DNA from: Escherichia coli
GTDB lineage: Bacteria; Pseudomonadota; Gammaproteobacteria; Enterobacterales; Enterobacteriaceae
Assembly: GCF_030384885.1 (NCBI RefSeq)
Contig: NZ_CP128613.1
Length of the DNA: 64,000 nt
Strand: one strand, 5' to 3'
Below, in pieces: positions 1,850-64,000 of this stretch; position 1 is the first letter of the stretch, and every line of letters starts with the position of its first letter. The notes beneath the pieces are model-generated. The model was not told where the DNA came from. It ran no database searches and saw only the letters and a program-made list of their open reading frames with translations. The position numbers and the translations under genes are program-made.

Positions 1850-3241
1850 ATGACAACCGAAACGCGTTCCCTCTATAGTCAACTTCCGGCTATTGATCGC
1901 TTATTGCGCGATAGCTCTTTCCTTTCTTTGCGTGATACCTATGGTCACACCCGCGTGGTGGAGTTGCTGCGTCAGATGCTTGACGAAGCGCGAGAAGTGA
2001 TTCGTGACAACCAGACGCTGCCCGCATGGTGTGAAAACTGGGCGCAAGAAGTCGATGCCCGGCTGACGAAGGAGGCGCAGAGCGCGCTGCGTCCGGTGAT
2101 CAACCTGACGGGAACCGTGCTGCATACCAATCTTGGGCGAGCTTTACAGGCAGAAGCCGCGGTGGAAGCCGTTGCGCAGGCTATGCGTTCGCCAGTGACC
2201 CTCGAGTACGATCTGGACGACGCCGGACGCGGACATCGCGATCGGGCGCTGGCACAGCTGCTGTGCCGCATTACGGGGGCGGAAGATGCCTGTATCGTTA
2301 ATAACAATGCGGCGGCGGTATTGTTGATGTTGGCGGCCACTGCCAGTGGGAAAGAGGTGGTGGTATCTCGCGGCGAACTGGTGGAGATTGGCGGCGCGTT
2401 TCGTATTCCTGATGTCATGCGTCAGGCAGGCTGCACCCTACACGAAGTGGGGACCACCAATCGCACGCACGCTAATGATTATCGCCAGGCGGTGAATGAA
2501 AATACCGCTCTGTTGATGAAAGTACATACCAGTAACTACAGCATTCAGGGGTTCACCAAAGCGATAGATGAAGCTGAACTGGTGGCGCTCGGCAAAGAGC
2601 TGGATGTTCCAGTGGTGACGGATTTAGGCAGTGGCTCGCTAGTCGATCTTAGCCAGTACGGTTTGCCGAAAGAGCCAATGCCGCAGGAGTTGATTGCGGC
2701 GGGCGTCAGTCTGGTGAGCTTCTCCGGCGACAAGCTGTTAGGCGGGCCGCAGGCAGGAATTATTGTTGGTAAAAAAGAGATGATCGCCCGCCTGCAAAGC
2801 CATCCACTGAAGCGTGCATTACGCGCGGATAAAATGACCCTCGCGGCGCTGGAAGCCACGTTGCGTCTTTATTTACACCCTGAGGCGCTGAGTGAAAAAT
2901 TACCGACCCTGCGTCTGCTTACCCGCAGCGCAGAGGTCATTCAAATCCAGGCACAACGTTTACAGGCCCCCCTTGCCGCACATTACGGCGCGGAGTTCGC
3001 GGTACAGGTTATGCCATGTCTTTCGCAGATTGGCAGTGGTTCGCTGCCGGTTGATCGCCTGCCGAGCGCGGCATTAACGTTTACACCCCATGATGGACGC
3101 GGTAGCCACCTTGAGTCATTAGCCGCCCGCTGGCGTGAATTGCCAGTGCCGGTGATTGGTCGTATTTATGACGGACGATTGTGGCTGGATTTACGCTGCC
3201 TTGAAGATGAGCAACGGTTTTTGGAGATGTTGTTGAAATGA
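1850..3241 (+). CDS. selA: L-seryl-tRNA(Sec) selenium transferase (selenocysteine synthase)
   Basis: 463-aa ORF, recognised; 4-bp ATGA overlap with selB. Confidence 0.93.
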
Positions 3242-5082
3242 TTATTGCGACTGCCGGACACGTTGACCACGGCAAAACAACCTTATTGCAGGCGATTACT
3301 GGCGTAAATGCCGACCGTCTGCCGGAAGAAAAAAAGCGCGGTATGACCATCGATCTCGGCTATGCCTACTGGCCGCAGTCAGATGGTCGCGTGCCTGGTT
3401 TTATCGACGTTCCCGGCCATGAAAAATTTCTTTCCAACATGCTGGCGGGCGTCGGGGGAATCGATCACGCGCTGTTGGTGGTGGCGTGCGATGACGGCGT
3501 GATGGCACAGACTCGTGAGCATCTGGCGATTTTGCAGCTGACCGGTAACCCGATGCTGACAGTGGCGCTGACCAAAGCCGATCGCGTGGACGAAGCGCGT
3601 GTTGATGAGGTTGAACGCCAGGTAAAGGAGGTGCTGCGGGAATACGGTTTTGCTGAGGCAAAACTGTTTATCACCGCAGCAACCGAAGGCCGGGGAATTG
3701 ATGCCCTGCGCGAGCATCTGCTTCAGTTACCAGAACGTGAACACGCCAGCCAACATAGCTTCCGCCTCGCTATCGACCGTGCTTTTACCGTAAAAGGTGC
3801 CGGGCTGGTCGTCACCGGTACGGCGTTAAGTGGGGAAGTGAAGGTAGGCGATTCACTCTGGCTGACTGGTGTAAATAAACCGATGCGCGTGCGTGCGCTA
3901 CATGCGCAAAATCAGCCAACAGAAACTGCCCATGCCGGGCAGCGTATCGCGCTTAACATCGCGGGTGATGCGGAAAAAGAGCAGATTAACCGTGGCGACT
4001 GGCTGCTTGCCGATGCGCCGCCGGAGCCGTTCACACGGGTGATTGTCGAGCTTCAAACCCATACACCGCTGACCCAGTGGCAGCCGCTGCATATTCACCA
4101 CGCCGCCAGCCACGTCACGGGACGCGTTTCGCTGCTGGAAGATAACCTTGCCGAGTTGGTGTTCGACACGCCGCTGTGGCTGGCAGATAACGATCGCTTA
4201 GTGCTACGCGATATCTCGGCCCGCAACACGCTGGCGGGGGCGCGCGTGGTGATGCTTAACCCGCCGCGTCGCGGTAAACGTAAGCCGGAATATCTGCAAT
4301 GGCTGGCGTCTCTTGCACAGGCGCAGAGCGATGCCGATGCGTTAGCTATTCATCTGGAACGCGGAGCGGTTAACCTTGCTGATTTCGCCTGGGCGCGCCA
4401 GCTCAACGGCGAAGGGATGCGTGAACTGCTGCAGCAACCGGGCTATATTCAGGCCGGTTATAGCTTGTTGAATGCGCCGGTTGCCGCTCGTTGGCAGCGT
4501 AAAATTCTCGATACCCTGGCGACTTATCATGAGCAGCATCGCGATGAACCAGGTCCTGGGCGCGAGCGTCTGCGGCGCATGGCGTTGCCAATGGAAGATG
4601 AAGCGCTGGTGCTGTTGCTGATTGAAAAGATGCGCGAAAGCGGCGACATCCTCAGTCATCACGGTTGGCTGCATCTGCCGGATCATAAAGCGGGATTCAG
4701 CGAAGAGCAGCAGGCTATCTGGCAAAAAGCGGAGCCGCTGTTTGGTGACGAGCCGTGGTGGGTGCGTGACCTGGCAAAAGAGACGGGAACCGACGAGCAG
4801 GCAATGCGTTTGACGCTACGCCAGGCGGCCCAACAGGGGATAATTACCGCGATCGTTAAAGATCGTTATTACCGTAACGATCGGATTGTCGAGTTTGCCA
4901 ATATGATCCGCGATCTCGATCAGGAATGTGGTTCAACCTGCGCGGCGGATTTCCGCGATCGCTTAGGTGTAGGCCGAAAGCTGGCAATTCAAATTCTGGA
5001 ATATTTTGACCGTATTGGCTTTACGCGTCGCCGTGGAAATGATCATTTATTGCGCGACGCATTATTATTTCCCGAAAAATAA
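3238..5082 (+). CDS. selB: Selenocysteine-specific translation elongation factor
   Basis: 614-aa ORF with N-terminal GTPase motif [11 protein letters not shown], recognised. Confidence 0.93.
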
Positions 5083-49686: not shown

Positions 49687-52020
49687 TTGGCCAACTCATC
49701 CTCACGATATTCCGTTCTGACTGCCGCTCACTGGGGGCCCATGCTGGTTGAAACCGACGGCGAAACCGTGCTTAGCTCGCGTGGCGCGTTAGCCACAGGA
49801 ATGGAAAACTCCTTGCAGAGCGCGGTTCGCGACCAGGTTCACAGTAATACGCGGGTACGATTTCCAATGGTGCGCAAAGGCTTTCTTGCGTCACCGGAAA
49901 ACCCGCAAGGCATTCGTGGGCAGGATGAATTTGTTCGTGTGAGTTGGGATGAGGCGCTGGAGCTTATTCACCAACAACATAAACGTATTCGTGAGGCTTA
50001 TGGTCCGGCATCGATTTTTGCTGGTTCCTACGGCTGGCGTTCAAACGGCGTGCTGCATAAGGCCTCGACATTATTACAACGCTATATGGCGCTGGCAGGC
50101 GGTTATACCGGGCATCTGGGGGATTATTCGACCGGTGCAGCACAGGCGATCATGCCGTATGTCGTGGGGGGCAGCGAAGTTTATCAACAGCAAACCAGTT
50201 GGCCGTTGGTATTGGAACATAGCGATGTCGTGGTGCTATGGAGTGCTAACCCACTCAATACGCTGAAAATTGCGTGGAATGCATCCGATGAGCAGGGGCT
50301 TTCTTACTTTTCCGCACTGCGTGACAGCGGGAAAAAGCTGATCTGCATTGATCCAATGCGATCGGAAACCGTCGATTTCTTTGGCGATAAAATGGAGTGG
50401 GTGGCACCGCACATGGGCACCGATGTTGCGCTGATGCTGGGGATCGCCCATACGCTGGTGGAAAATGGCTGGCACGACGAAGCGTTTCTGGCGCGTTGCA
50501 CCACAGGTTATGACGTCTTCGCCTCTTATTTGCTGGGCGAGAGTGACGGAATAGCGAAAAATGCCGAATGGGCGGCAGAGATTTGTGGGATTAACGCAGA
50601 GAAAATCCGCGAACTGGCGGCTATTTTTCATCAAAATACCACCATGCTGATGGCTGGCTGGGGAATGCAGCGCCAGCAGTTTGGTGAGCAAAAACACTGG
50701 ATGATCGTCACCCTGGCAGCAATGTTAGGGCAAATCGGCACGCCTGGCGGGGGCTTTGGTCTTTCTTACCATTTTGCCAATGGTGGTAACCCTACGCGCC
50801 GCGCTGCGGTGCTTTCATCTATGCAGGGCAGCTTGCCAGGTGGCACCGATGCGGTAGATAAAATCCCTGTAGCCCGTATGGTTGAAGCTCTGGAAAACCC
50901 TGGCGGTGCATACCAACACAATGGCATGAACCGTCACTTCCCGGATATTCGTTTTATCTGGTGGGCGGGCGGCGCCAACTTTACTCATCATCAGGATACC
51001 AATCGCCTGATTCGTGCCTGGCAAAAACCGGAGCTGGTGGTGATCTCCGAATGCTTCTGGACGGCAGCGGCGAAACACGCCGATATCGTCCTCCCTGCAA
51101 CCACCTCGTTTGAGCGTAATGACCTCACCATGACCGGCGATTACAGTAATCAGCATCTGGTGCCGATGAAGCAAGTGGTGCCTCCACGTGATGAAGCGCG
51201 TAATGATTTTGCTGTCTTTGCCGAGTTGAGTGAACGTTGGGAGAAGGGCGGCTATGCGCGGTTTACGGAAGGAAAAAGTGAGCTGCAATGGCTGGAAACG
51301 TTTTATAACGTTGCACGGCAGCGCGGGGCAAGCCAGCAGGTTGAATTGCCGCCATTTGCTGAGTTCTGGGAAGCCAACCAGTTAATTGAGATGCCGGAAA
51401 ACCCGGACAGCGAGCGGTTTATTCGCTTCGCCGATTTTCGCCGCGATCCGCAGGCGCATCCATTAAAAACCGCCAGCGGCAAGATTGAAATCTTCTCGCA
51501 GCGTATTGCCGATTACGCTTATCCGGATTGCCCTGGGCATCCAATGTGGCTGGAGCCGGACGAATGGCAGGGCAATGCCGAACCGGAACAGTTGCAGGTA
51601 CTTTCTGCTCATCCGGCACATCGTCTGCACAGCCAGCTGAATTACAGTTCTCTGCGCGAATTGTACGCGGTGGCAAATCGTGAGCCTGTCACCATTCATC
51701 CTGACGATGCCCAGGCGCGCGGCATACAAGATGGCGATATTGTTCGGTTGTGGAACGCACGCGGGCAAATTCTTGCCGGAGCGGTCATTAGCGAGGGAAT
51801 TAAACCTGGCGTGATTTGCATTCATGAAGGGGCATGGCCGGATCTGGATTTAACCGCTGACGGTATTTGTAAAAACGGCGCGGTGAACGTTCTGACCAAA
51901 GATCTCCCCAGCTCGCGGCTGGGGAATGGCTGTGCGGGTAATACGGCGCTGGCATGGCTGGAAAAATACAACGGTCCGGAACTGACACTTACAGCGTTTG
52001 AACCACCGGCCAGCTCATAA
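49687..52020 (+). CDS. bisC: Biotin sulfoxide reductase (molybdopterin oxidoreductase)
   Basis: 777-aa ORF beginning at TTG 49687 with AGGAG about 10 nt upstream; recognised. Confidence 0.88.
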
Positions 52021-52429
52021 TCCAGGTGGGTAGTTGGGTTTCATCCTGCCATGCGCAGTCGACAATGTGAAAACCCTGCGCATGGTAAAAATCTATCGCC
52101 GGTTGATTTTTTTGATAAACCTCCAGCATCAGATGGGGATGGCGCTGCTGCACATACTGCATTAGCGCCTTACCAATACCGCGTCTGACGGCCTTCGGTG
52201 CGACAAACATTGCAGCCAGAAATCGGCCTTCCATAATGCTGACAAAACCGAGAAGCTTACCGTCTTCTTCCCAGACCCAGTTTTGCGCGTTGGCAAGATA
52301 GGCATCCCGCACCAGCGGAATGCAATCACGCCAGTAATTCGCTTTTATAAAGGGATGCCCCCAGGTTGTACTTTCCAGCCACAATTCGAGGATCGCGGGG
52401 AGTTCTGAACGTTGCGCTTCCCGAATCAT
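51989..52429 (-). CDS. yiaC: GNAT-family N-acetyltransferase YiaC
   Basis: 146-aa ORF; 3' end overlaps the bisC 3' end by 32 bp (convergent). Confidence 0.88.
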
Positions 52430-52989
52430 GGTTTATTTCCCGGATAGCAACAGCAGCCAACCACATGATCATTCACCAGCCCACATGCCTGCATAAAGGA
52501 GTAACAGATTGTGGTACCAACAAACTTAAAACCACGCTTTTTCAGGGCTTTAGATAGAGCGTCGGAGGCGGGCGTAGATGTAGGGATTTCGCTCAACGTT
52601 GTGGCTTGTGTCACCTGTGGTTGATGATTGACAAACGACCAAACAAAGTCGGCAAACGGTTCGCCGTTCTGTTCCATTTGCAGGTACGCTCGCGCATTGC
52701 CAATAATTGCCTGAATTTTCCCGCGATGGCGGATAATCCCGGCGTCCTGTACCAGTCTTTCGACGTCCTCTTCCTGCATTGCAGCCACCTTCACCGGATC
52801 GAACTGATGAAAGCTGGCGCGATAGTTTTCGCGTTTTTTGAGGACGGTGATCCACGATAATCCAGCCTGCTGCCCTTCAAGGCAGATCATTTCGAACAGT
52901 TTTTTACTGTCAGTTTCAGGCACGCCCCATTCATTATCATGGTAGGCAATATAAAGCGGGTCCTGACTCACCCAGCCGCAACGTTCCAT
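52426..52989 (-). CDS. tag: DNA-3-methyladenine glycosylase I
   Basis: Start at ATG 52989 (MERCGWVSQDPLYIAYHDNEWG, RBS agggaa) giving 187 aa. Confidence 0.92.
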   Translation of the reverse strand: MERCGWVSQDPLYIAYHDNEWGVPETDSKKLFEMICLEGQQAGLSWITVLKKRENYRASFHQFDPVKVAAMQEEDVERLVQDAGIIRHRGKIQAIIGNARAYLQMEQNGEPFADFVWSFVNHQPQVTQATTLSEIPTSTPASDALSKALKKRGFKFVGTTICYSFMQACGLVNDHVVGCCCYPGNKP

Positions 52990-53146
52990 ACTTTCCCTCG
53001 CTATGTACCCGATCGTAAAAATTTCAGCCGCTTTTCTTGACGCATCGGTGAAAAAGTCAATATTTAATACAGGGCTACTATGCCCGATATCCTTCATACA
53101 ATGACAATAATATTGCCGAATTCGGCTCTTCCCTGGAGTCGTGTTA

Positions 53147-53845
53147 ATGATCATAAAAAAAAGCGGTGGTCGCTGACAGTTAAGCCTGCTGGCGAGCGTG
53201 GTAATCAGTGCCTTTTTTCTCAACACAGCTTACGCCTGGCAACAAGAATATATCGTTGATACGCAACCCGGACATTCCACAGAGCGCTACACCTGGGATA
53301 GCGATCATCAACCTGATTACAACGATATTCTGTCGCAACGTATTCAAAGTAGCCAAAGGGCGCTGGGACTGGAAGTCAATCTGGCGGAAGAAACCCCTGT
53401 GGATGTGACCAGCAGTATGAGTATGGGCTGGAATTTTCCTTTATATGAACAGGTTACAACCGGCCCGGTCGCGGCATTACATTACGATGGTACAACCACC
53501 TCGATGTATAACGAGTTTGGCGACAGTACTACTACACTGACTGATCCGTTATGGCATGCCAGTGTGAGTACCTTAGGCTGGCGTGTTGACTCCCGGCTTG
53601 GCGATCTCCGACCCTGGGCGCAAATCAGCTATAACCAGCAATTTGGCGAGAATATCTGGAAGGCGCAATCAGGCTTAAGCCGGATGACGGCGACAAACCA
53701 GAACGGCAACTGGCTGGATGTCACGGTAGGTGCTGATATGTTGCTCAATCAAAATATTGCCGCCTACGCTGCGTTATCTCAGGCAGAAAATACCACGAAC
53801 AATAATGACTATCTGTATACGATGGGGGTTAGTGCCAGATTTTAA
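53147..53845 (+). pseudogene. yhjY: yhjY (autotransporter beta-domain protein) with in-frame TGA at codon 10 (53174-53176); possible pseudogene or reinitiation at GTG 53198
   Basis: ATG 53147 to stop 53845 is 232 codons in one frame except the TGA; reading TGA as a sense codon restores a canonical signal peptide MIIKKSGGR-x-QLSLLASVVISAFFLNTAYA. Confidence 0.65.
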
Positions 53846-54073
53846 CGTTATAGAAACAATTGAAACCCATAAATAACAACTAATGTGGCGATAGTGGGGA
53901 CTAACTTACTAAATAATAAATTTGGTGAATAATTGTCGAGTCATTCATTCCTGAACTAATGCATTTCATTCCGTTCTGATGGCATTTCATGCCGTTTTTC
54001 CCCAGGCATAAAGTGCACTTCGTTATGGTTGTCAGCAGAGATTTTTCCTTTTTATTACTGCAGGAATACTGCC

Positions 54074-55282
54074 ATGACACCTTCAAATTATCAGCGTACT
54101 CGCTGGCTGACACTCATCGGTACTATCATTACCCAGTTTGCCCTGGGGTCGGTTTATACCTGGAGTCTGTTTAACGGCGCGCTTTCTGCCAAGCTGGGGG
54201 CTCCGGTAAGCCAGGTTGCTTTCTCTTTCGGCTTGTTAAGTCTGGGGCTGGCAATTTCGTCTTCTGTTGCGGGCAAATTGCAAGAACGTTTTGGTGTTAA
54301 ACGCGTCACTATGGCTTCCGGCATTTTGCTGGGATTAGGTTTCTTCCTGACAGCACATTCCAACAACCTGATGATGCTGTGGTTAAGCGCCGGTGTGTTG
54401 GTTGGTCTGGCGGATGGTGCGGGTTACCTGTTGACGCTCTCTAACTGCGTGAAGTGGTTCCCGGAGCGTAAGGGACTCATCTCTGCTTTCGCTATTGGTT
54501 CTTATGGACTTGGTAGTCTGGGTTTCAAATTTATCGATACGCAACTGTTGGAAACGGTCGGTCTGGAAAAAACCTTTGTTATTTGGGGCGCGATTGTACT
54601 GGTGATGATTATCTTTGGCGCAACGTTAATGAAAGATGCGCCGAAACAGGAAGTGAAAACCAGCAATGGTGTGGTGGAGAAGGATTACACGCTGGCAGAG
54701 TCGATGCGTAAACCGCAGTACTGGATGTTAGCAGTTATGTTCCTGACTGCCTGCATGAGTGGCCTGTATGTGATTGGCGTGGCGAAAGATATCGCTCAAA
54801 GTCTGGCGCATCTTGATGCAATTTCCGCAGCCAATGCTGTGACGGTTATTTCCATCGCCAACCTTTCTGGTCGTCTGGTGCTGGGCATTCTGTCTGACAA
54901 AATCGCCCGTATCCGTGTTATCACCATTGGTCAGGTCATTTCGCTGGTGGGCATGGCGGCCCTGCTGTTTGCACCATTGAATGCAGTGACGTTCTTTGCA
55001 GCGATTGCCTGCGTGGCATTTAACTTCGGCGGCACTATCACGGTGTTCCCGTCACTGGTCAGTGAGTTCTTCGGCCTAAATAATCTGGCAAAAAACTACG
55101 GTGTGATTTACCTCGGTTTCGGAATCGGCAGCATTTGTGGTTCGATTATCGCTTCACTGTTTGGCGGATTCTATGTGACATTCTACGTGATTTTCGCCCT
55201 GCTGATTCTGTCACTGGCGCTTTCTACGACGATTCGCCAGCCAGAGCAGAAAATGTTGCGTGAGGCGCATGGCTCCCTTTAA
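54074..55282 (+). CDS. yhjX: MFS transporter YhjX (oxalate/formate antiporter family)
   Basis: Start at ATG 54074 (MTPSNYQRTRWLTL) giving 402 aa. Confidence 0.9.
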   Translation: MTPSNYQRTRWLTLIGTIITQFALGSVYTWSLFNGALSAKLGAPVSQVAFSFGLLSLGLAISSSVAGKLQERFGVKRVTMASGILLGLGFFLTAHSNNLMMLWLSAGVLVGLADGAGYLLTLSNCVKWFPERKGLISAFAIGSYGLGSLGFKFIDTQLLETVGLEKTFVIWGAIVLVMIIFGATLMKDAPKQEVKTSNGVVEKDYTLAESMRKPQYWMLAVMFLTACMSGLYVIGVAKDIAQSLAHLDAISAANAVTVISIANLSGRLVLGILSDKIARIRVITIGQVISLVGMAALLFAPLNAVTFFAAIACVAFNFGGTITVFPSLVSEFFGLNNLAKNYGVIYLGFGIGSICGSIIASLFGGFYVTFYVIFALLILSLALSTTIRQPEQKMLREAHGSL

Positions 55283-55605
55283 TGACCTGCCGCGAGCTAC
55301 TGGGCTTTAGCCTTAGTGTGAATCAAACGCTTCAACGCAATGTATAAACAATGACGCGTAAAATTTGGGCCAGTGAACTGGCCCTTTTTACTGCTTTTTG
55401 TAACGCTAAAGTCTCTTTTCAAACTTGCATTTTTGTAAATTTGTGCTTCATGCACACTCTTTCCCCACACTTTTTCCCTTTGCTGTGGTCTACTTATTCG
55501 CGCGTGTAGATTTTACTTATCTGACTACCTCCGCACTTTTCCCCTGCCGGGCCTGAAAAGCCACTAAGCAGGGTGTTATCACCTGTTTGTCCAGGGTTTG
55601 TTTGC

Positions 55606-57297
55606 ATGAGATACATCAAATCGATTACACAGCAGAAGCTGAGCTTTTTGCTTGCAATCTATATTGGCCTTTTTATGAATGGCGCGGTTTTTTACCGCCG
55701 CTTCGGCAGCTATGCGCACGATTTTACCGTCTGGAAAGGCGTTTCTGCTGTTGTTGAACTGGTCGCTACCGTACTGGTGACCTTCTTTTTACTGCGTCTG
55801 CTTTCGCTGTTTGGCCGCCGCAGCTGGCGAATTCTGGCATCGCTGGTGGTGCTCTTTTCTGCAGGTGCCAGCTATTACATGACTTTCCTTAATGTGGTCA
55901 TTGGTTATGGCATCATCGCATCCGTCATGACCACCGATATCGACCTGTCAAAAGAAGTTGTTGGTCTGAACTTTATTCTCTGGTTAATCGCCGTAAGCGC
56001 ATTGCCTCTTATCCTTATCTGGAATAACCGCTGTCGCTACACCTTGCTCCGACAACTGCGAACCCCAGGGCAACGTATTCGGAGTCTGGCGGTCGTCGTA
56101 CTGGCAGGTATTATGGTTTGGGCACCGATTCGTTTGCTGGATATCCAGCAGAAGAAAGTGGAGAGGGCGACAGGTGTTGATTTGCCGAGTTATGGTGGCG
56201 TTGTCGCGAACTCTTATCTGCCATCAAACTGGCTTTCGGCGTTAGGTCTTTATGCCTGGGCGCGGGTCGATGAATCTTCCGATAACAATTCTCTCCTTAA
56301 CCCTGCGAAGAAGTTTACGTACCAGGCTCCACAAAACGTTGATGATACATATGTCGTTTTCATTATTGGTGAAACCACGCGCTGGGATCATATGGGCATT
56401 TTCGGCTATGAACGCAATACCACACCGAAACTGGCTCAGGAGAAAAATCTGGCGGCGTTTCGTGGCTATTCTTGTGACACGGCGACCAAACTTTCTCTGC
56501 GTTGCATGTTTGTGCGTCAGGGTGGAGCAGAAGATAATCCGCAGCGCACATTAAAAGAACAGAACATTTTCGCGGTATTGAAGCAGTTAGGATTCAGTTC
56601 TGATCTCTACGCTATGCAAAGCGAAATGTGGTTCTACAGCAATACGATGGCGGACAATATTGCTTATCGTGAGCAGATTGGTGCGGAACCGCGTAACCGC
56701 GGCAAGCCGGTAGATGATATGTTGCTGGTAGACGAAATGCAGCAATCGCTGGGGCGTAACCCGGATGGTAAGCATCTGATCATTCTGCATACCAAGGGGT
56801 CGCACTTTAACTACACCCAGCGTTACCCGCGCAGCTTTGCGCAGTGGAAGCCAGAATGTATTGGTGTTGATAGCGGCTGTACCAAAGCGCAGATGATCAA
56901 CTCCTACGACAACTCGGTGACCTATGTGGATCACTTTATTTCCAGCGTGATTGATCAGGTTCGCGATAAGAAAGCGATTGTGTTCTACGCAGCTGACCAC
57001 GGTGAGTCAATTAATGAACGCGAGCACCTGCACGGCACACCGCGTGAACTGGCACCGCCGGAGCAGTTCCGCGTACCGATGATGGTCTGGATGTCGGATA
57101 AATATCTGGAAAATCCAGCCAACGCGCAGGCATTTGCGCAGCTGAAAAAAGAAGCCGACATGAAAGTGCCACGCCGTCACGTAGAGCTGTACGACACCAT
57201 CATGGGTTGTCTTGGCTATACTTCACCGGACGGTGGTATTAACGAAAACAACAACTGGTGCCACATCCCGCAGGCAAAAGAGGCAGCGGCTAACTAA
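55606..57297 (+). CDS. eptB: Kdo(2)-lipid A phosphoethanolamine transferase
   Basis: Start at ATG 55606 ([10 protein letters not shown]) giving 563 aa; N-terminal TM domain plus sulfatase-like domain. Confidence 0.9.
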
Positions 57298-57388
57298 GAA
57301 GCCTGCTGACTTTCTCGCCGATCAAAAGGCATTTTGCTATTAAGGGATTGACGAGGGCGTATCTGCGCAGTAAGATGCGCCCCGCATT

Positions 57389-57465
<77 letters not shown>

Positions 57466-57471
57466 AATTCG

Positions 57472-57500
57472 AAAAGCCTGCTCAGCGAGCAGGCTTTTTT
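57472..57500 (+). terminator. Rho-independent terminator of proK
   Basis: aaaagcctgctcagcgagcaggctttttt. Confidence 0.8.
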
Positions 57501-57515
57501 GCATTTGAAGCCCAT

Positions 57516-57787
57516 GAGGATGAGAACCTCCGGGGGCGGGGAGGTTCGACTCGAGCGAAGCGAGAGAACGTTGCGCCAGCAACGGCCCGCAGGGCGAGCC
57601 ACGAAGTGGCGAGTAATCCTCTATCACCGACCAATTTAGAAAAACCAGCCTACGGGCTGGTTTTTTGCTTTCTGCGACCTGAAGAGGATAAGAACCTCCG
57701 GGGGCAGGGAGGTTCGACTCGAGCAAAGCGAGAGAACGTTGTGGCAGCAACGGCCCGCAGTGGCGAGTAATCCTCTGGCACCGACCA
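57516..57787 (+). repeat. Two tandem degenerate repeat units (57516-57633 and 57681-57787), each ending in a tRNA-Pro 3'-end-like sequence, separated by a terminator-like hairpin (57640-57668)
   Basis: Units share gagaacctccggggg(c/a)ggggaggttcgactcgagc...gcgagagaacgttg...cagcaacggcccgcag...tggcgagtaatcctct(a/g)(t/g)caccgacca; final 19 nt resemble the proK 3' end. Confidence 0.7.
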
Positions 57788-58414
57788 AAACGGCCCCGCA
57801 TTCATTGTCGGATACAGCGTACCTGTCTTATCCGATCTAAACGGCAACACACCACATATTTCCCTGCCAAATTTGCGCCCCACATCTCACTATCCATTAA
57901 CGGATTTGTGACAGAATCCATTGTCTTTTTTTATATTTGCTTAAATCTTTTTTTGCGTTACTTATGGCTGGCGCTGGCATTTTCCGCTGTGCGTTTTAGC
58001 GTTCATGGTATTAATCGCTCAGATATCCATCTTTTCCTCAGATTTTTTTCATTAAATGCATAAAACTTAATCACCAAATGTTGCTAAATATTAAGCTGAT
58101 TGTTCTGGTTATGTTGGCGTAGCACAAATTTCTCTGCTGCAAATAGCTGTTTGAAGTTTTTTTAATCTTTGTTTGTGGATTCTCACCGTTGGTGTAAATC
58201 CCGGTTGGCTGTATTGACGTTTTCACATTCTGTTGACAGATTGTAGGTCACGAGGGGCATTTTATGGAGGATCCGCACTGTTACACTGATGTTAATTAGT
58301 ACGGCATCCCCACCTCATAACGTTGACCCGACCGGGTAAAAAACAAAAAAGGTCAGGCAGCGACAACCCACTGCAAAGGGTTAAAACAACAAACATCACA
58401 ATTGGAGCAGAATA

Positions 58415-60022
58415 ATGCGTATTTCCTTGAAAAAGTCAGGGATGCTGAAGCTTGGTCTCAGCCTGGTGGCTATGACCGTCGCAGCAAGTGTTCAGGCTAA
58501 AACTCTGGTTTATTGCTCAGAAGGATCTCCGGAAGGGTTTAACCCGCAGCTGTTTACCTCCGGCACCACCTATGACGCCTCTTCCGTACCGCTTTATAAC
58601 CGCCTGGTTGAATTTAAAATCGGCACCACTGAAGTGATTCCGGGCCTCGCTGAAAAGTGGGAAGTCAGCGAAGACGGTAAAACCTATACCTTCCATCTGC
58701 GTAAAGGTGTGAAGTGGCATAACAACAAAGAATTCAAACCGACGCGCGAACTGAATGCCGATGACGTGGTGTTCTCGTTCGATCGTCAGAAAAACGCACA
58801 AAACCCGTACCATAAAGTTTCTGGCGGCAGCTACGAATACTTCGAAGGTATGGGCTTGCCGGAGCTGATCAGCGAAGTGAAAAAGGTGGACGACAACACC
58901 GTTCAGTTCGTGCTGACTCGCCCGGAAGCGCCGTTCCTTGCTGACCTGGCAATGGACTTCGCCTCTATTCTGTCAAAAGAATATGCTGACGCGATGATGA
59001 AAGCCGGTACGCCGGAAAAACTGGACCTCAACCCAATCGGCACCGGCCCGTTCCAGTTACAGCAATATCAAAAAGATTCCCGTATTCGCTACAAAGCGTT
59101 TGATGGCTACTGGGGCACCAAACCGCAGATCGATACGCTGGTCTTCTCTATTACTCCTGACGCTTCCGTGCGTTACGCTAAATTGCAGAAGAACGAATGC
59201 CAGGTGATGCCGTACCCGAACCCGGCAGACATCGCTCGCATGAAGCAGGATAAATCCATCAACCTGATGGAAATGCCGGGGCTGAACGTCGGCTATCTCT
59301 CGTATAACGTGCAGAAAAAACCACTGGATGACGTGAAAGTTCGCCAGGCACTGACCTATGCGGTGAACAAAGACGCGATTATCAAAGCGGTGTATCAGGG
59401 CGCTGGCGTATCAGCGAAAAACCTGATCCCGCCAACCATGTGGGGCTATAACGATGATGTTCAGGACTACACCTACGATCCTGAAAAAGCGAAAGCCTTG
59501 CTGAAAGAAGCGGGTCTGGAAAAAGGCTTCTCTATCGACCTGTGGGCAATGCCGGTACAACGTCCGTATAACCCGAACGCTCGTCGCATGGCAGAGATGA
59601 TTCAGGCAGACTGGGCGAAAGTCGGCGTACAAGCGAAAATCGTTACCTACGAATGGGGTGAGTACCTCAAGCGTGCAAAAGATGGCGAGCACCAGACGGT
59701 AATGATGGGCTGGACTGGCGATAACGGGGATCCGGATAACTTCTTCGCTACCCTGTTTAGCTGCGCTGCCTCTGAACAAGGCTCCAACTACTCAAAATGG
59801 TGCTACAAACCGTTTGAAGATCTGATTCAACCGGCGCGTGCTACCGACGACCACAACAAGCGTGTTGAACTGTACAAACAAGCACAGGTCGTGATGCACG
59901 ATCAGGCTCCGGCACTGATCATCGCTCACTCCACCGTGTTTGAACCGGTACGCAAAGAAGTTAAAGGCTATGTGGTTGATCCATTAGGCAAACATCACTT
60001 CGAAAACGTCTCTATCGAATAA
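58415..60022 (+). CDS. dppA: Dipeptide ABC transporter periplasmic binding protein
   Basis: 535-aa ORF with signal peptide, recognised. Confidence 0.95.
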   Translation: MRISLKKSGMLKLGLSLVAMTVAASVQAKTLVYCSEGSPEGFNPQLFTSGTTYDASSVPLYNRLVEFKIGTTEVIPGLAEKWEVSEDGKTYTFHLRKGVKWHNNKEFKPTRELNADDVVFSFDRQKNAQNPYHKVSGGSYEYFEGMGLPELISEVKKVDDNTVQFVLTRPEAPFLADLAMDFASILSKEYADAMMKAGTPEKLDLNPIGTGPFQLQQYQKDSRIRYKAFDGYWGTKPQIDTLVFSITPDASVRYAKLQKNECQVMPYPNPADIARMKQDKSINLMEMPGLNVGYLSYNVQKKPLDDVKVRQALTYAVNKDAIIKAVYQGAGVSAKNLIPPTMWGYNDDVQDYTYDPEKAKALLKEAGLEKGFSIDLWAMPVQRPYNPNARRMAEMIQADWAKVGVQAKIVTYEWGEYLKRAKDGEHQTVMMGWTGDNGDPDNFFATLFSCAASEQGSNYSKWCYKPFEDLIQPARATDDHNKRVELYKQAQVVMHDQAPALIIAHSTVFEPVRKEVKGYVVDPLGKHHFENVSIE

Positions 60023-60057
60023 TTAAAAGCCATACAAGGTTGATGGCAAACGCAAAA

Positions 60058-60158
<101 letters not shown>

Positions 60159-60329
60159 TGACCAAAGCGTACTTTGTCAACAATCTGCATACCCGGTGGT
60201 GCTGTGCCTTTAAGTGCAGCGCCATCCGGCAGCAATACTTAATTCCTTGTCCTATAAGGGCGGGAATTGATTTGTGAGCAATACAGACTCGCAGTTCCAG
60301 GCTGCGGGTCACTACAGAGAATCCGGGTT

Positions 60330-61349
60330 ATGTTGCAGTTTATTCTCCGACGTTTGGGACTCGTCATCCCCACGTTTATCGGTATTACCCTTCTCACATT
60401 TGCCTTTGTCCACATGATCCCGGGCGATCCGGTGATGATCATGGCGGGTGAACGTGGGATCTCCCCAGAGCGTCACGCACAATTGCTGGCAGAACTCGGC
60501 TTGGATAAACCGATGTGGCAGCAGTATCTCCATTACATTTGGGGTGTAATGCACGGTGATTTAGGCATTTCGATGAAAAGCCGCATCCCGGTTTGGGAAG
60601 AGTTCGTGCCGCGCTTCCAGGCCACGCTGGAACTTGGCGTCTGCGCGATGATTTTTGCGACCGCGGTCGGTATTCCGGTTGGTGTGCTGGCTGCGGTTAA
60701 ACGCGGTTCTATTTTCGATCACACGGCGGTTGGTCTGGCGCTGACCGGCTACTCCATGCCGATCTTCTGGTGGGGCATGATGTTGATCATGCTGGTTTCG
60801 GTGCACTGGAACCTGACGCCTGTCTCCGGTCGCGTGAGCGACATGGTGTTCCTCGATGACTCCAATCCGTTAACCGGTTTTATGCTAATCGACACCGCCA
60901 TCTGGGGTGAAGACGGTAACTTTATCGATGCCGTCGCCCATATGATCCTGCCCGCCATTGTGCTGGGTACTATCCCGCTGGCGGTCATTGTACGTATGAC
61001 GCGCTCCTCGATGCTGGAAGTGCTGGGCGAGGATTACATCCGCACCGCGCGTGCCAAAGGGCTGACCCGCCTTAGGGTGATTATCGTCCATGCGCTGCGT
61101 AATGCCATGCTGCCGGTGGTGACCGTTATCGGCCTGCAGGTGGGAACATTGCTGGCAGGCGCGATTCTGACCGAAACCATCTTCTCGTGGCCAGGTCTGG
61201 GGCGCTGGTTGATTGACGCGCTGCAACGCCGCGATTATCCGGTAGTGCAGGGAGGCGTATTACTGGTGGCGACGATGATTATCCTCGTCAACCTGCTGGT
61301 CGATCTGCTGTACGGCGTGGTGAACCCGCGTATTCGTCATAAGAAGTAA
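60330..61349 (+). CDS. dppB: Dipeptide ABC transporter permease
   Basis: Start at ATG 60330 (MLQFILRRLGLVIPTFIG) giving 339 aa. Confidence 0.92.
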   Translation: MLQFILRRLGLVIPTFIGITLLTFAFVHMIPGDPVMIMAGERGISPERHAQLLAELGLDKPMWQQYLHYIWGVMHGDLGISMKSRIPVWEEFVPRFQATLELGVCAMIFATAVGIPVGVLAAVKRGSIFDHTAVGLALTGYSMPIFWWGMMLIMLVSVHWNLTPVSGRVSDMVFLDDSNPLTGFMLIDTAIWGEDGNFIDAVAHMILPAIVLGTIPLAVIVRMTRSSMLEVLGEDYIRTARAKGLTRLRVIIVHALRNAMLPVVTVIGLQVGTLLAGAILTETIFSWPGLGRWLIDALQRRDYPVVQGGVLLVATMIILVNLLVDLLYGVVNPRIRHKK

Positions 61350-61358
61350 GGGGACATC

Positions 61359-62261
61359 ATGTCACAGGTTACTGAAAATAAAGTGATTAGCGCACCGGTG
61401 CCGATGACCCCGTTACAGGAGTTCTGGCACTATTTTAAACGCAACAAAGGCGCGGTTGTCGGGCTGGTTTACGTCGTCATCGTGCTGTTTATCGCGATCT
61501 TTGCCAACTGGATTGCACCCTATAACCCAGCGGAACAGTTCCGCGATGCACTGCTCGCCCCGCCAGCCTGGCAAGAAGGCGGCAGTATGGCGCACTTGCT
61601 GGGCACCGATGACGTAGGTCGTGATGTGCTGTCGCGGCTGATGTACGGCGCGCGCTTGTCGCTGCTGGTTGGCTGTCTGGTAGTGGTGTTATCGCTGATT
61701 ATGGGCGTTATTCTCGGCCTGATCGCTGGTTACTTTGGCGGCCTGGTCGATAACATCATCATGCGCGTGGTCGATATCATGCTGGCGCTGCCAAGTCTGC
61801 TGCTGGCGCTGGTGCTGGTGGCGATTTTCGGCCCGTCGATTGGTAACGCCGCGCTGGCGCTAACCTTCGTTGCGCTGCCGCACTATGTGCGCTTAACCCG
61901 CGCCGCCGTGCTGGTGGAGGTGAATCGCGATTACGTCACCGCGTCTCGCGTGGCGGGGGCCGGGGCGATGCGTCAGATGTTTATTAACATCTTCCCGAAC
62001 TGCCTTGCGCCGCTGATTGTTCAGGCGTCGCTCGGTTTCTCTAACGCCATTCTCGATATGGCTGCTCTTGGTTTCCTCGGCATGGGAGCGCAGCCGCCAA
62101 CACCGGAGTGGGGCACCATGCTCTCCGATGTGTTGCAGTTCGCGCAAAGCGCCTGGTGGGTCGTAACCTTCCCCGGTCTGGCGATCCTGCTGACGGTGCT
62201 GGCATTTAACCTGATGGGTGACGGTCTGCGTGACGCGCTCGATCCCAAACTGAAGCAGTAA
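61359..62261 (+). CDS. dppC: Dipeptide ABC transporter permease
   Basis: 300-aa membrane ORF, recognised. Confidence 0.93.
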
Positions 62262-62271
62262 GAGGTTCGAG

Positions 62272-63255
62272 ATGGCGTTATTAAATGTAGATAAATTATC
62301 GGTGCATTTCGGCGACGAAAGCGCACCGTTCCGCGCCGTAGACCGTATCAGCTACAGCGTAAAACAGGGCGAAGTGGTCGGAATTGTGGGTGAGTCTGGC
62401 TCCGGTAAGTCGGTCAGTTCACTGGCGATTATGGGGCTGATTGATTATCCGGGCCGCGTGATGGCAGAAAAGCTGGAGTTTAACGGCCAGGATTTGCAGC
62501 GTATCTCGGAAAAAGAGCGCCGCAACCTGGTGGGTGCCGAAGTGGCGATGATCTTTCAGGACCCGATGACCAGCCTCAACCCGTGTTACACCGTAGGTTT
62601 CCAGATTATGGAAGCAATTAAAGTGCATCAGGGCGGTAATAAGAGCACTCGCCGTCAGCGGGCGATTGATCTGCTGAATCAGGTCGGTATTCCCGATCCG
62701 GCATCGCGTCTGGATGTTTACCCGCATCAGCTTTCTGGCGGCATGAGCCAGCGTGTGATGATCGCCATGGCGATTGCCTGTCGGCCAAAACTGCTGATTG
62801 CTGATGAGCCGACCACCGCGCTGGACGTGACCATTCAGGCACAAATCATCGAACTGCTGCTGGAGCTGCAGCAGAAAGAGAACATGGCGCTGGTGTTGAT
62901 TACCCATGACCTGGCGCTGGTGGCGGAAGCGGCGCATAAAATCATCGTCATGTATGCAGGCCAGGTGGTGGAAACGGGCGATGCCCACGCCATCTTCCAT
63001 GCACCGCGTCATCCGTATACTCAGGCATTGCTGCGCGCGCTGCCGGAATTTGCCCAGGACAAAGAACGTCTGGCGTCATTGCCTGGCGTCGTTCCTGGCA
63101 AATACGACCGACCGAATGGCTGCCTGCTTAACCCGCGTTGCCCCTATGCCACTGACAGATGCCGTGCTGAAGAACCGGCGCTGAATATGCTCGCTGACGG
63201 GCGTCAGTCCAAATGCCATTACCCACTTGATGATGCCGGGAGGCCCACACTATGA
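62272..63255 (+). CDS. dppD: Dipeptide ABC transporter ATP-binding protein
   Basis: 327-aa ORF with Walker A GESGSGKS, recognised. Confidence 0.93.
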
Positions 63256-64000
63256 GTACGCAAGAGGCCACCCTGCAACAACCGCTGTTGCAGGCTATCG
63301 ACCTGAAAAAACATTATCCGGTGAAGAAAGGCATGTTCGCGCCGGAACGTCTTGTAAAGGCGCTGGATGGCGTTTCGTTTAATCTTGAACGTGGCAAAAC
63401 GCTGGCAGTAGTGGGTGAATCTGGCTGCGGTAAGTCGACCCTCGGTCGGTTGCTGACGATGATTGAAACGCCCACCGGCGGCGAACTGTATTACCAGGGG
63501 CAGGATCTGCTCAAGCACGATCCGCAGGCGCAGAAGTTGCGTCGGCAGAAAATCCAGATCGTCTTTCAGAATCCCTATGGCTCGCTGAATCCGCGTAAAA
63601 AAGTCGGGCAAATTCTTGAAGAGCCGCTGCTTATTAACACCAGTTTAAGCAAAGAACAGCGTCGGGAAAAAGCGTTGTCGATGATGGCAAAAGTTGGCCT
63701 AAAAACCGAGCATTACGACCGCTACCCGCATATGTTCTCCGGCGGTCAGCGTCAGCGTATCGCCATTGCCCGTGGTCTGATGCTCGACCCGGATGTGGTG
63801 ATTGCCGATGAACCGGTTTCCGCGCTGGACGTTTCAGTGCGTGCGCAGGTGCTGAATCTGATGATGGATTTGCAGCAGGAGTTGGGGCTGTCTTATGTCT
63901 TTATCTCGCACGACCTGTCGGTGGTGGAGCACATTGCTGATGAAGTGATGGTGATGTACCTGGGCCGCTGCGTGGAGAAGGGAACGAAGGACCAAATCTT
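63252..64000 (+). CDS. dppF: Dipeptide ABC transporter ATP-binding protein, 5' part (runs off window end)
   Basis: ATG 63252 overlapping the dppD stop (ATGA); Walker [10 protein letters not shown]; open to the window end. Confidence 0.9.

Follow-up and report, generated by a model that had tools for sequence, protein, structure and literature searches.

A premature UGA at codon 10 of the outer-membrane protein gene yhjY in an Escherichia coli lineage: probably a recent null or knock-down allele

The window, which is the whole stretch of 64,000 nt of Escherichia coli DNA that was analysed, contains the gene order bisC-yiaC-tag-yhjY-yhjX, and the same order is found in the compared genomes. A 901-nt probe of the region has a match in 5,422 of 5,426 complete E. 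coli genomes, which is always located on the chromosome. The locus is composed of the following features:

52426..52989, minus strand, tag (3-methyladenine DNA glycosylase I), intact, upstream of yhjY and divergent from it
53147..53845, plus strand, yhjY frame of 232 codons and a terminal TAA, with codon 10 turned into a stop
53174..53176, plus strand, premature stop TGA at codon 10 of yhjY, next base C (UGA-C context)
54074..55282, plus strand, yhjX (MFS transporter), intact, downstream of yhjY with 228 nt between it and the yhjY stop

By sequence and synteny, the interrupted frame is assigned as the yhjY orthologue. The translation of 53147-53845 reads MIIKKSGGR*QLSLLASVVISAFFLNTAYAWQQ... 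and harbors a single internal stop, the TGA at 53174-53176, as had been described in an earlier, sequence-only reading of this DNA. In RefSeq, yhjY is found at the equivalent coordinates with a length of 699 nt and 232 aa in the strains 2020CK-00188, MC4100 (K-12), R4, and 2013C-4282, which matches the product length that the earlier reading had given for K-12. The annotated ATG of these four genomes corresponds to window position 53147, and codon 10 is TGG in all of them. Tryptophan, put forward in that reading as one example of a sense codon, is thereby supported as the original residue. The comparison with other E. coli identifies the mutated base as the A at 53176, where a G→A change turned the ancestral TGG (Trp) into TGA. 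Apart from codon 10, the YhjY protein of the window is identical to WP_000584470.1. The two further nucleotide differences to the nearest alleles are both synonymous, and W10* is the sole amino-acid change. The stop does not simply lie in a frame without constraint, where it could occur by chance: the 5′ end of the frame is unbroken in about 98 % of complete E. coli genomes, and the frame is conserved across the Enterobacteriaceae.

YhjY is a small protein of the outer membrane, and profile matches assign it a β-barrel domain of the autotransporter type. The domain, the signal peptide, and the ribosome binding site are encoded as follows:

53135..53138, plus strand, Shine-Dalgarno sequence GGAG, 8 nt upstream of ATG 53147
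53147..53236, plus strand, signal-peptide coding region of 30 codons (n-region, h-region, AYA, then WQQEY)
53408..53773, plus strand, autotransporter β-domain match (PF03797, residues 88-209, E 9.1e-12)

The PF03797 match covers only model positions 119-253 of 255, which is the C-terminal half of the profile, and TIGR01414 is matched over residues 88-232 with 21.7 bits (cut-off 16). The C terminus ...GVSARF is conserved, and F232, the C-terminal aromatic residue of the β-signal, is invariant. No passenger domain was found N-terminal to the barrel, where about 57 residues lie between the signal peptide and the profile match. YhjY is accordingly predicted to be a barrel-only relative and not a full autotransporter. 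AlphaFold2 models of the protein have a low pLDDT (31 with 16 orthologues, 37 with 70 orthologues), and a PDB sequence search returned no relative. YhjY is included in a curated compilation of K-12 outer-membrane proteins, with homology models that are described as poor and deformed (PMC7383365). The gene is expressed and is among those under RpoS control in O157:H7 (PMC2907692).

Of the first 10 candidate starts scored in the frame, ATG 53147 has the strongest anti-Shine-Dalgarno duplex (-5.9 kcal/mol). The signal peptide of the window frame carries three K/R residues in its n-region (K4, K5, and R9) and an h-region of 16 residues; cleavage would be expected after the AYA motif, in front of WQQEY. 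This three-part n/h/c layout, as judged by sequence rules, agrees with the Sec signal peptide that had been anticipated for a frame with a sense codon at position 10. Orthologues of 226-235 aa are present in E. albertii, E. fergusonii, Salmonella, Citrobacter, Superficieibacter, Enterobacter, Kosakonia, and Pseudenterobacter and cover 90-100 % of the full query. An N-terminal pattern of M-x-I-K-K-x-S-G-R, a hydrophobic stretch, A-x-A, and WQQEY is common to 70 orthologues, and A28, A30, and W31-Y35 are nearly invariant among them. Residue 10, on the other hand, is unconstrained and variable in the family, with a gap in 26 of these orthologues, R in 19, H in 10, Q in 7, and W in 6. ATG 53147 is the authentic start of yhjY, since the GGAG lies 8 nt upstream of it and the N terminus is conserved in the 70 orthologues. 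The suggestion that orthologues might place the start downstream of the TGA was not borne out: other genera keep the same N terminus, and no orthologue begins near the CTG or GTG codons described below, except for truncated calls in other broken alleles.

The TGA is present in further assemblies of the same lineage. With 0 differences from the window, it is carried by the Logan assemblies of SRR28813876 (over 6,648 nt) and SRR34938331 (over 2,398 nt) and by the NCBI assembly GCA_025828115.1 (over a compared stretch of 1,000 nt and over the 660-nt CDS). The window allele is thus present in at least three of the assemblies checked, and look-ups grouped 8 and 6 further similar places with them. 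The truncated 215-aa product (P0001) is found in a public protein collection on 13 contigs. The frequency of 5′-end variants was counted with exact 58-61-nt probes against complete E. coli genomes:

Wild-type 5′ end (A8, TGG, CAG): exact matches in 5,232 of 5,361 matched complete genomes
TGA at codon 10: 1 full-coverage exact match (STEC309) among 5,361 matched complete genomes
A7: 46 complete genomes (≥99 % band)
A9: 28 complete genomes (≥99 % band)
A6: 1 full-coverage complete genome, 2 in the ≥99 % band

In the ≥99 % band, the TGA probe additionally matched six other records with partial coverage, which may represent an allele with TAG at codon 11. The one full-coverage match, STEC309, is not a close relative of the window. 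The two differ at 196 of 4,060 positions around yhjY (4.8 %), including 23 differences in the last 660 nt of the gene. Because STEC309 already diverges from the window 4 nt downstream of the mutated base, its TGA is most simply explained by an independent G→A event; a recombination end point within those 4 nt is a second possibility.

The window lineage itself is absent from the complete-genome set, in which the best match reaches 99.8 % over 901 nt and 99.6 % over 24.9 kb. The similarity to strain 2013C-4282 (NZ_CP027579.1) is mosaic, with 6 SNPs in 713-52000 and 104 SNPs in 52000-63900. The divergence starts within tag, and this jump in SNP number suggests that a recombination boundary adjoins yhjY. 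At the other end of the window, nt 1-712 do not align to 2013C-4282 (515 of 712 ungapped mismatches), which has the tip of an Rhs core protein gene there.

The stop at codon 10 is one of several lesions that are found in the 5′ end of yhjY, many of which affect a homopolymer:

53155..53162, plus strand, A8 homopolymer in codons 3-6, with A6, A7, and A9 variants among natural and laboratory E. coli

On the window-type allele, other lesions are A9 (places L004 and L012) and A6 (L006 and L008). On the STEC309-type allele, which is the common K-12-like form of yhjY, A6 (L013, L015-L020) and A9 (L014) occur together with a CAG→TAG change at codon 11 (window 53177-53179; L021 and L022). The complete genomes with A9 include K-12 derivatives (CV601, PG2018005x) and O157:H7 strains. 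A7 fuses the upstream out-of-frame ATG 53101 to yhjY, giving a 247-aa product (P0036). A 254-aa protein (P0002) starts from ATG 53080, keeps the upstream frame, and rejoins yhjY near codon 18 by two compensating frameshifts across codons 6-17. Truncated forms of YhjY are common in Shigella flexneri. At the opposite end of the gene, a frameshift replaces the conserved ...GVSARF in three 242-aa proteins (P0021, P0027, and P0028).

The A8 run appears to be a minor hot spot for yhjY lesions. Part of the variation in the tract may be caused by homopolymer length errors, which occur in long-read assemblies. The apparent accumulation of lesions at the 5′ end is in part due to ascertainment, since the look-up of 215- and 219-aa products detects only lesions upstream of codon 14. 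The several independent routes to a lesion indicate that yhjY is dispensable and lost now and then. As in phase-variable genes, the length of the 5′ repeat is variable among isolates. Eight A's are short for known contingency tracts, and with a wild-type 5′ end in about 98 % of complete genomes, yhjY is not a classical phase-variable locus.

In the window allele, ribosomes would start at ATG 53147 and meet the UGA after nine codons, where RF2 would release MIIKKSGGR, a peptide of nine residues. Of the 222 codons that follow, most would remain untranslated, and YhjY would be largely or wholly missing. Residual YhjY would mainly arise from near-cognate reading of the UGA by Trp-tRNA(Trp), which restores the original residue, at a level of probably a few percent or less. 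As residue 10 is variable and located in the cleaved signal peptide, any read-through product should mature to wild-type YhjY. A restart at CTG 53186 or GTG 53198 may occur but would be weak, and the signal peptide of its product would be crippled.

UGA read-through is determined by the competition between Trp-tRNA(Trp) and RF2; reporters in K-12 gave a level of about 2 % at 37 °C, which rose to 4 % at 25 °C, and read-through depends on temperature and cAMP and differs between individual cells (PMC10570021). A C at position +4 is a poor context for UGA termination in bacteria, but the misreading of UGA by tRNA(Trp) was reported to be strongest with +4A, not +4C (PMC5289835). The RF2 gene prfB is located outside the window. 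The RF2 variant of K-12 is unusually weak, so natural isolates probably read through less than the K-12 figures.

With a probability of roughly 85 %, the TGA marks a recent, lineage-specific W10* allele, a knock-down or null and an incipient pseudogene of a dispensable gene rather than a recoding device. The null or knock-down status is predicted from the sequence. The 222 codons downstream of the stop show no further damage. This fits a recent mutation and would also fit selection on a read-through or restart product. The presence of the TGA on the STEC309 background could hint at selection for this particular change over neutral decay.

It is unlikely that the allele was selected for its leakiness, with UGA-C read-through supplying wild-type YhjY in small amounts that depend on conditions and differ between cells, and this hypomorphic state being maintained. 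The variable decoding of UGA by tRNA(Trp), the termination-weakening +4C, and the recreation of the original sequence by Trp insertion would all suit such an allele, as would the recurrence of the TGA on a 4.8 %-diverged background and the lack of secondary decay behind the stop. Against it stands the rarity of the TGA (1 of 5,361 matched complete genomes). Moreover, the non-leaky A6 and A9 frameshifts and the TAG at codon 11 affect the same 5′ end on the same backgrounds, and these lesions, together with the truncated forms in Shigella flexneri, point to a dispensable gene that is simply being lost. Among spontaneous mutations, G:C→A:T transitions are the most frequent, and two TGA events among many thousands of sequenced lineages are therefore unremarkable. 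Unlike a dedicated read-through site, the yhjY UGA bears no sign of selection for read-through.

Somewhat less probable is a functional restart of translation, in which a 219- or 215-aa product reaches the outer membrane and the gene stays functional. Two codons come into question:

53186..53188, plus strand, CTG (codon 14), start of the 219-aa CDS of the NCBI pipeline, 10 nt after the stop
53198..53200, plus strand, GTG (codon 18), first ATG/GTG/TTG past the stop, start of the 215-aa ORF reported by gene callers, 22 nt after the stop

The open frame past the stop is fully intact, the NCBI pipeline calls a CDS in it, and the CTG product retains a hydrophobic stretch of 12 residues as well as the AYA motif for cleavage. 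In E. coli, lacI and the rpoS amber-33 alleles of K-12 provide known examples of translation that restarts behind an early nonsense codon. The initiation signals, however, are weak. The anti-Shine-Dalgarno duplex amounts to -2.2 kcal/mol for CTG 53186 (spacing 14 nt) and -2.7 kcal/mol for GTG 53198 (spacing 0-1 nt), compared to -5.9 kcal/mol at the real start. A Shine-Dalgarno-like GGCGAG ends 1 nt before GTG 53198 and is too close to serve as such (RNAduplex spacing 0). Initiation at CTG is very inefficient in E. coli. Both products are left without a K/R in the n-region, where orthologues of several genera share a KK..GR motif, and apart from the truncated calls mentioned above, no orthologue starts at either codon. 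Of the 16 core residues, 4 are lost from CTG 53186 and 8 from GTG 53198, so that 12 and 8 h-region residues are left. The GTG had been named in the sequence-only reading as a restart site without the charged n-region, and it does head the 215-aa ORF as the next start in the ORF list. The missing charges were confirmed, but the cost was understated, as half of the hydrophobic core is lost as well.

CTG 53186 was absent from the sequence-only reading and is the start that the NCBI pipeline assigns to the TGA allele. The yhjY of STEC309 is annotated from this codon as the 219-aa WP_094185497.1, which is found on 111 contigs, and the 219-aa product of the window lineage (P0046, from GCA_025828115.1) is called from it on 8 contigs. 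The pipeline (PGAP) proceeds alike for TGA10, TAG11, A6, and A9, annotating a 219-aa CDS from CTG and not a pseudogene. At least four different 5′ lesions are thus masked by a normal-looking product name, and because the CTG-start call hides the lesion, these strains would count as yhjY-positive in a pan-genome presence/absence analysis. Proteins of 215 aa with a GTG start are found on 545, 163, and 159 contigs, but these numbers were not used as a measure of disruption, since older pipelines may choose the GTG start in intact genes.

Less probable again is the more far-reaching idea that the 5′ end of yhjY acts as a tunable on/off/low switch, in which lineages repeatedly gain either A-tract frameshifts and TAG at codon 11 as hard-off lesions or the leaky UGA-C, with a read-through that changes with temperature and cAMP and from cell to cell. 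Selection for these lesions might come, for instance, from a phage or a host factor that targets YhjY. If it were true, the recurrence of the TGA in two unrelated backgrounds would represent selection for heterogeneous low expression.

A sequencing or assembly error in an isolate that truly carries TGG is very unlikely. Such an error would have to explain one base only, but the identical TGA with identical flanks is present in the one NCBI and two Logan assemblies from other run accessions. A substitution away from a homopolymer is also atypical of systematic error, and STEC309 shows the same change, apparently independently. The remainder of the window agrees almost completely with a finished genome: over 713-38999 there are 3 substitutions and no gaps compared to 2013C-4282, which implies a high sequence quality. 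None of 21 other genes checked over 39000-63900 has an internal stop. The TGA at codon 10 is hence regarded as a genuine allele that is reproduced in independent assemblies. Among the options that the sequence-only reading had listed, sequencing error is disfavoured by these assemblies, and a strain-specific nonsense mutation near the N terminus is favoured by the ancestral TGG, the authentic ATG, and the occurrence of the allele in a small lineage and one unrelated complete genome.

The use of the UGA as a selenocysteine codon, or its bypass by a programmed frameshift, can practically be dismissed: Sec machinery is present and UGA-C is the context of the prfB frameshift, but the UGA is a derived single-base change at a position that holds W, R, H, Q, or a gap and never a conserved Cys/Sec in orthologues, the 60 nt from the UGA fold at -11 kcal/mol and no better than shuffles (z 0.70), so no SECIS-like fold is seen, no Rfam match lies within 52900-54100, and for a prfB-type +1 frameshift the P-site codon is CGC and not the slippery CUU, with a +1 frame (GAC AGU UAA) that closes after two codons. 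By collinearity with 2013C-4282, selA and selB are located at about 1850-5082 of the window. Their sharing a window with the yhjY UGA is judged to be a coincidence.

The creation of a promoter by the mutation was likewise considered and rejected. On the minus strand, the -35-like CTGTCA (53179-53174) matches at 4 of 6 positions with either allele. On the plus strand, CTGACA matches at 5 of 6 positions, but no -10 element is found at a spacing of 16-18 nt. A promoter scan returned 2 sites versus 2.7 expected.

The 5′ stretch of yhjY contains a further candidate element next to the stop:

53159..53170, plus strand, putative RybB pairing site of 12 nt, complementary to RybB nt 1-12

The duplex of this site with the 5′ end of MG1655 rybB has an energy of -17.5 kcal/mol, which is equalled by 14 of 852 control windows. 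In TRIC-seq, the yhjY mRNA was captured with RybB as a new RybB partner (bioRxiv 10.1101/2025.09.11.675593). Between the putative site and the TGA codon lie 3 nt, and the mutation leaves the pairing bases unchanged. RybB pairing could help to explain the strong nucleotide conservation of the yhjY 5′ stretch. A synonymous S21S change in YhjY was found in five independent populations in a study of rifampicin-resistance compensation, with no measurable fitness effect (bioRxiv 10.1101/2023.01.13.524028). S21 corresponds to codon 21, AGT, at 53207-53209 of the window, and this codon is possibly a mutational hot spot or a regulatory site.

The yhjY TGA allele is ordinary biology and a known kind of event. 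It adds one more dispensable outer-membrane protein gene that appears to be knocked out in a minor E. coli lineage, and its biological weight is small. Its practical value lies in the annotation of broken alleles. In addition, the TGA10, TAG11, and A-tract strains constitute a natural allelic series for studying YhjY function or chromosomal UGA-C read-through in a wild isolate.

The allele can be compared with several known systems. It resembles the frameshift site of prfB (RF2) in having an in-frame UGA followed by C early in the gene. The prfB site, however, has a slippery CUU and a Shine-Dalgarno-like stimulator at the correct distance, whereas yhjY possesses neither and its +1 frame is closed. 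The restarts in lacI and rpoS amber-33 are similar in that the yhjY stop lies within the first 10 codons and is followed by an in-frame CTG and GTG 10-22 nt downstream. They differ in two respects: the LacI and RpoS proteins are cytoplasmic and tolerate N-terminal loss, while the lost N terminus of YhjY is its export signal, and the yhjY restart codons have no Shine-Dalgarno sequence before them.

UGA read-through by wild-type tRNA(Trp) (Engelberg-Kulka 1981; PMC10570021) involves the same codon, the same competitors, and the weak +4C context. The known cases were measured in reporters or at natural gene ends, whereas read-through at the yhjY UGA is a prediction. The closest parallel is provided by natural nonsense and frameshift polymorphisms that produce pseudogenes of dispensable E. 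coli and Shigella genes, with which the yhjY allele shares a single derived base change in a conserved ORF of a small lineage. As in these, the yhjY lesion leaves the neighbouring genes and the synteny untouched, and other independent lesions are present in the species. The only difference to ordinary pseudogene alleles, and not an essential one, is that the yhjY UGA arose from UGG, so that near-cognate read-through would restore the original residue.
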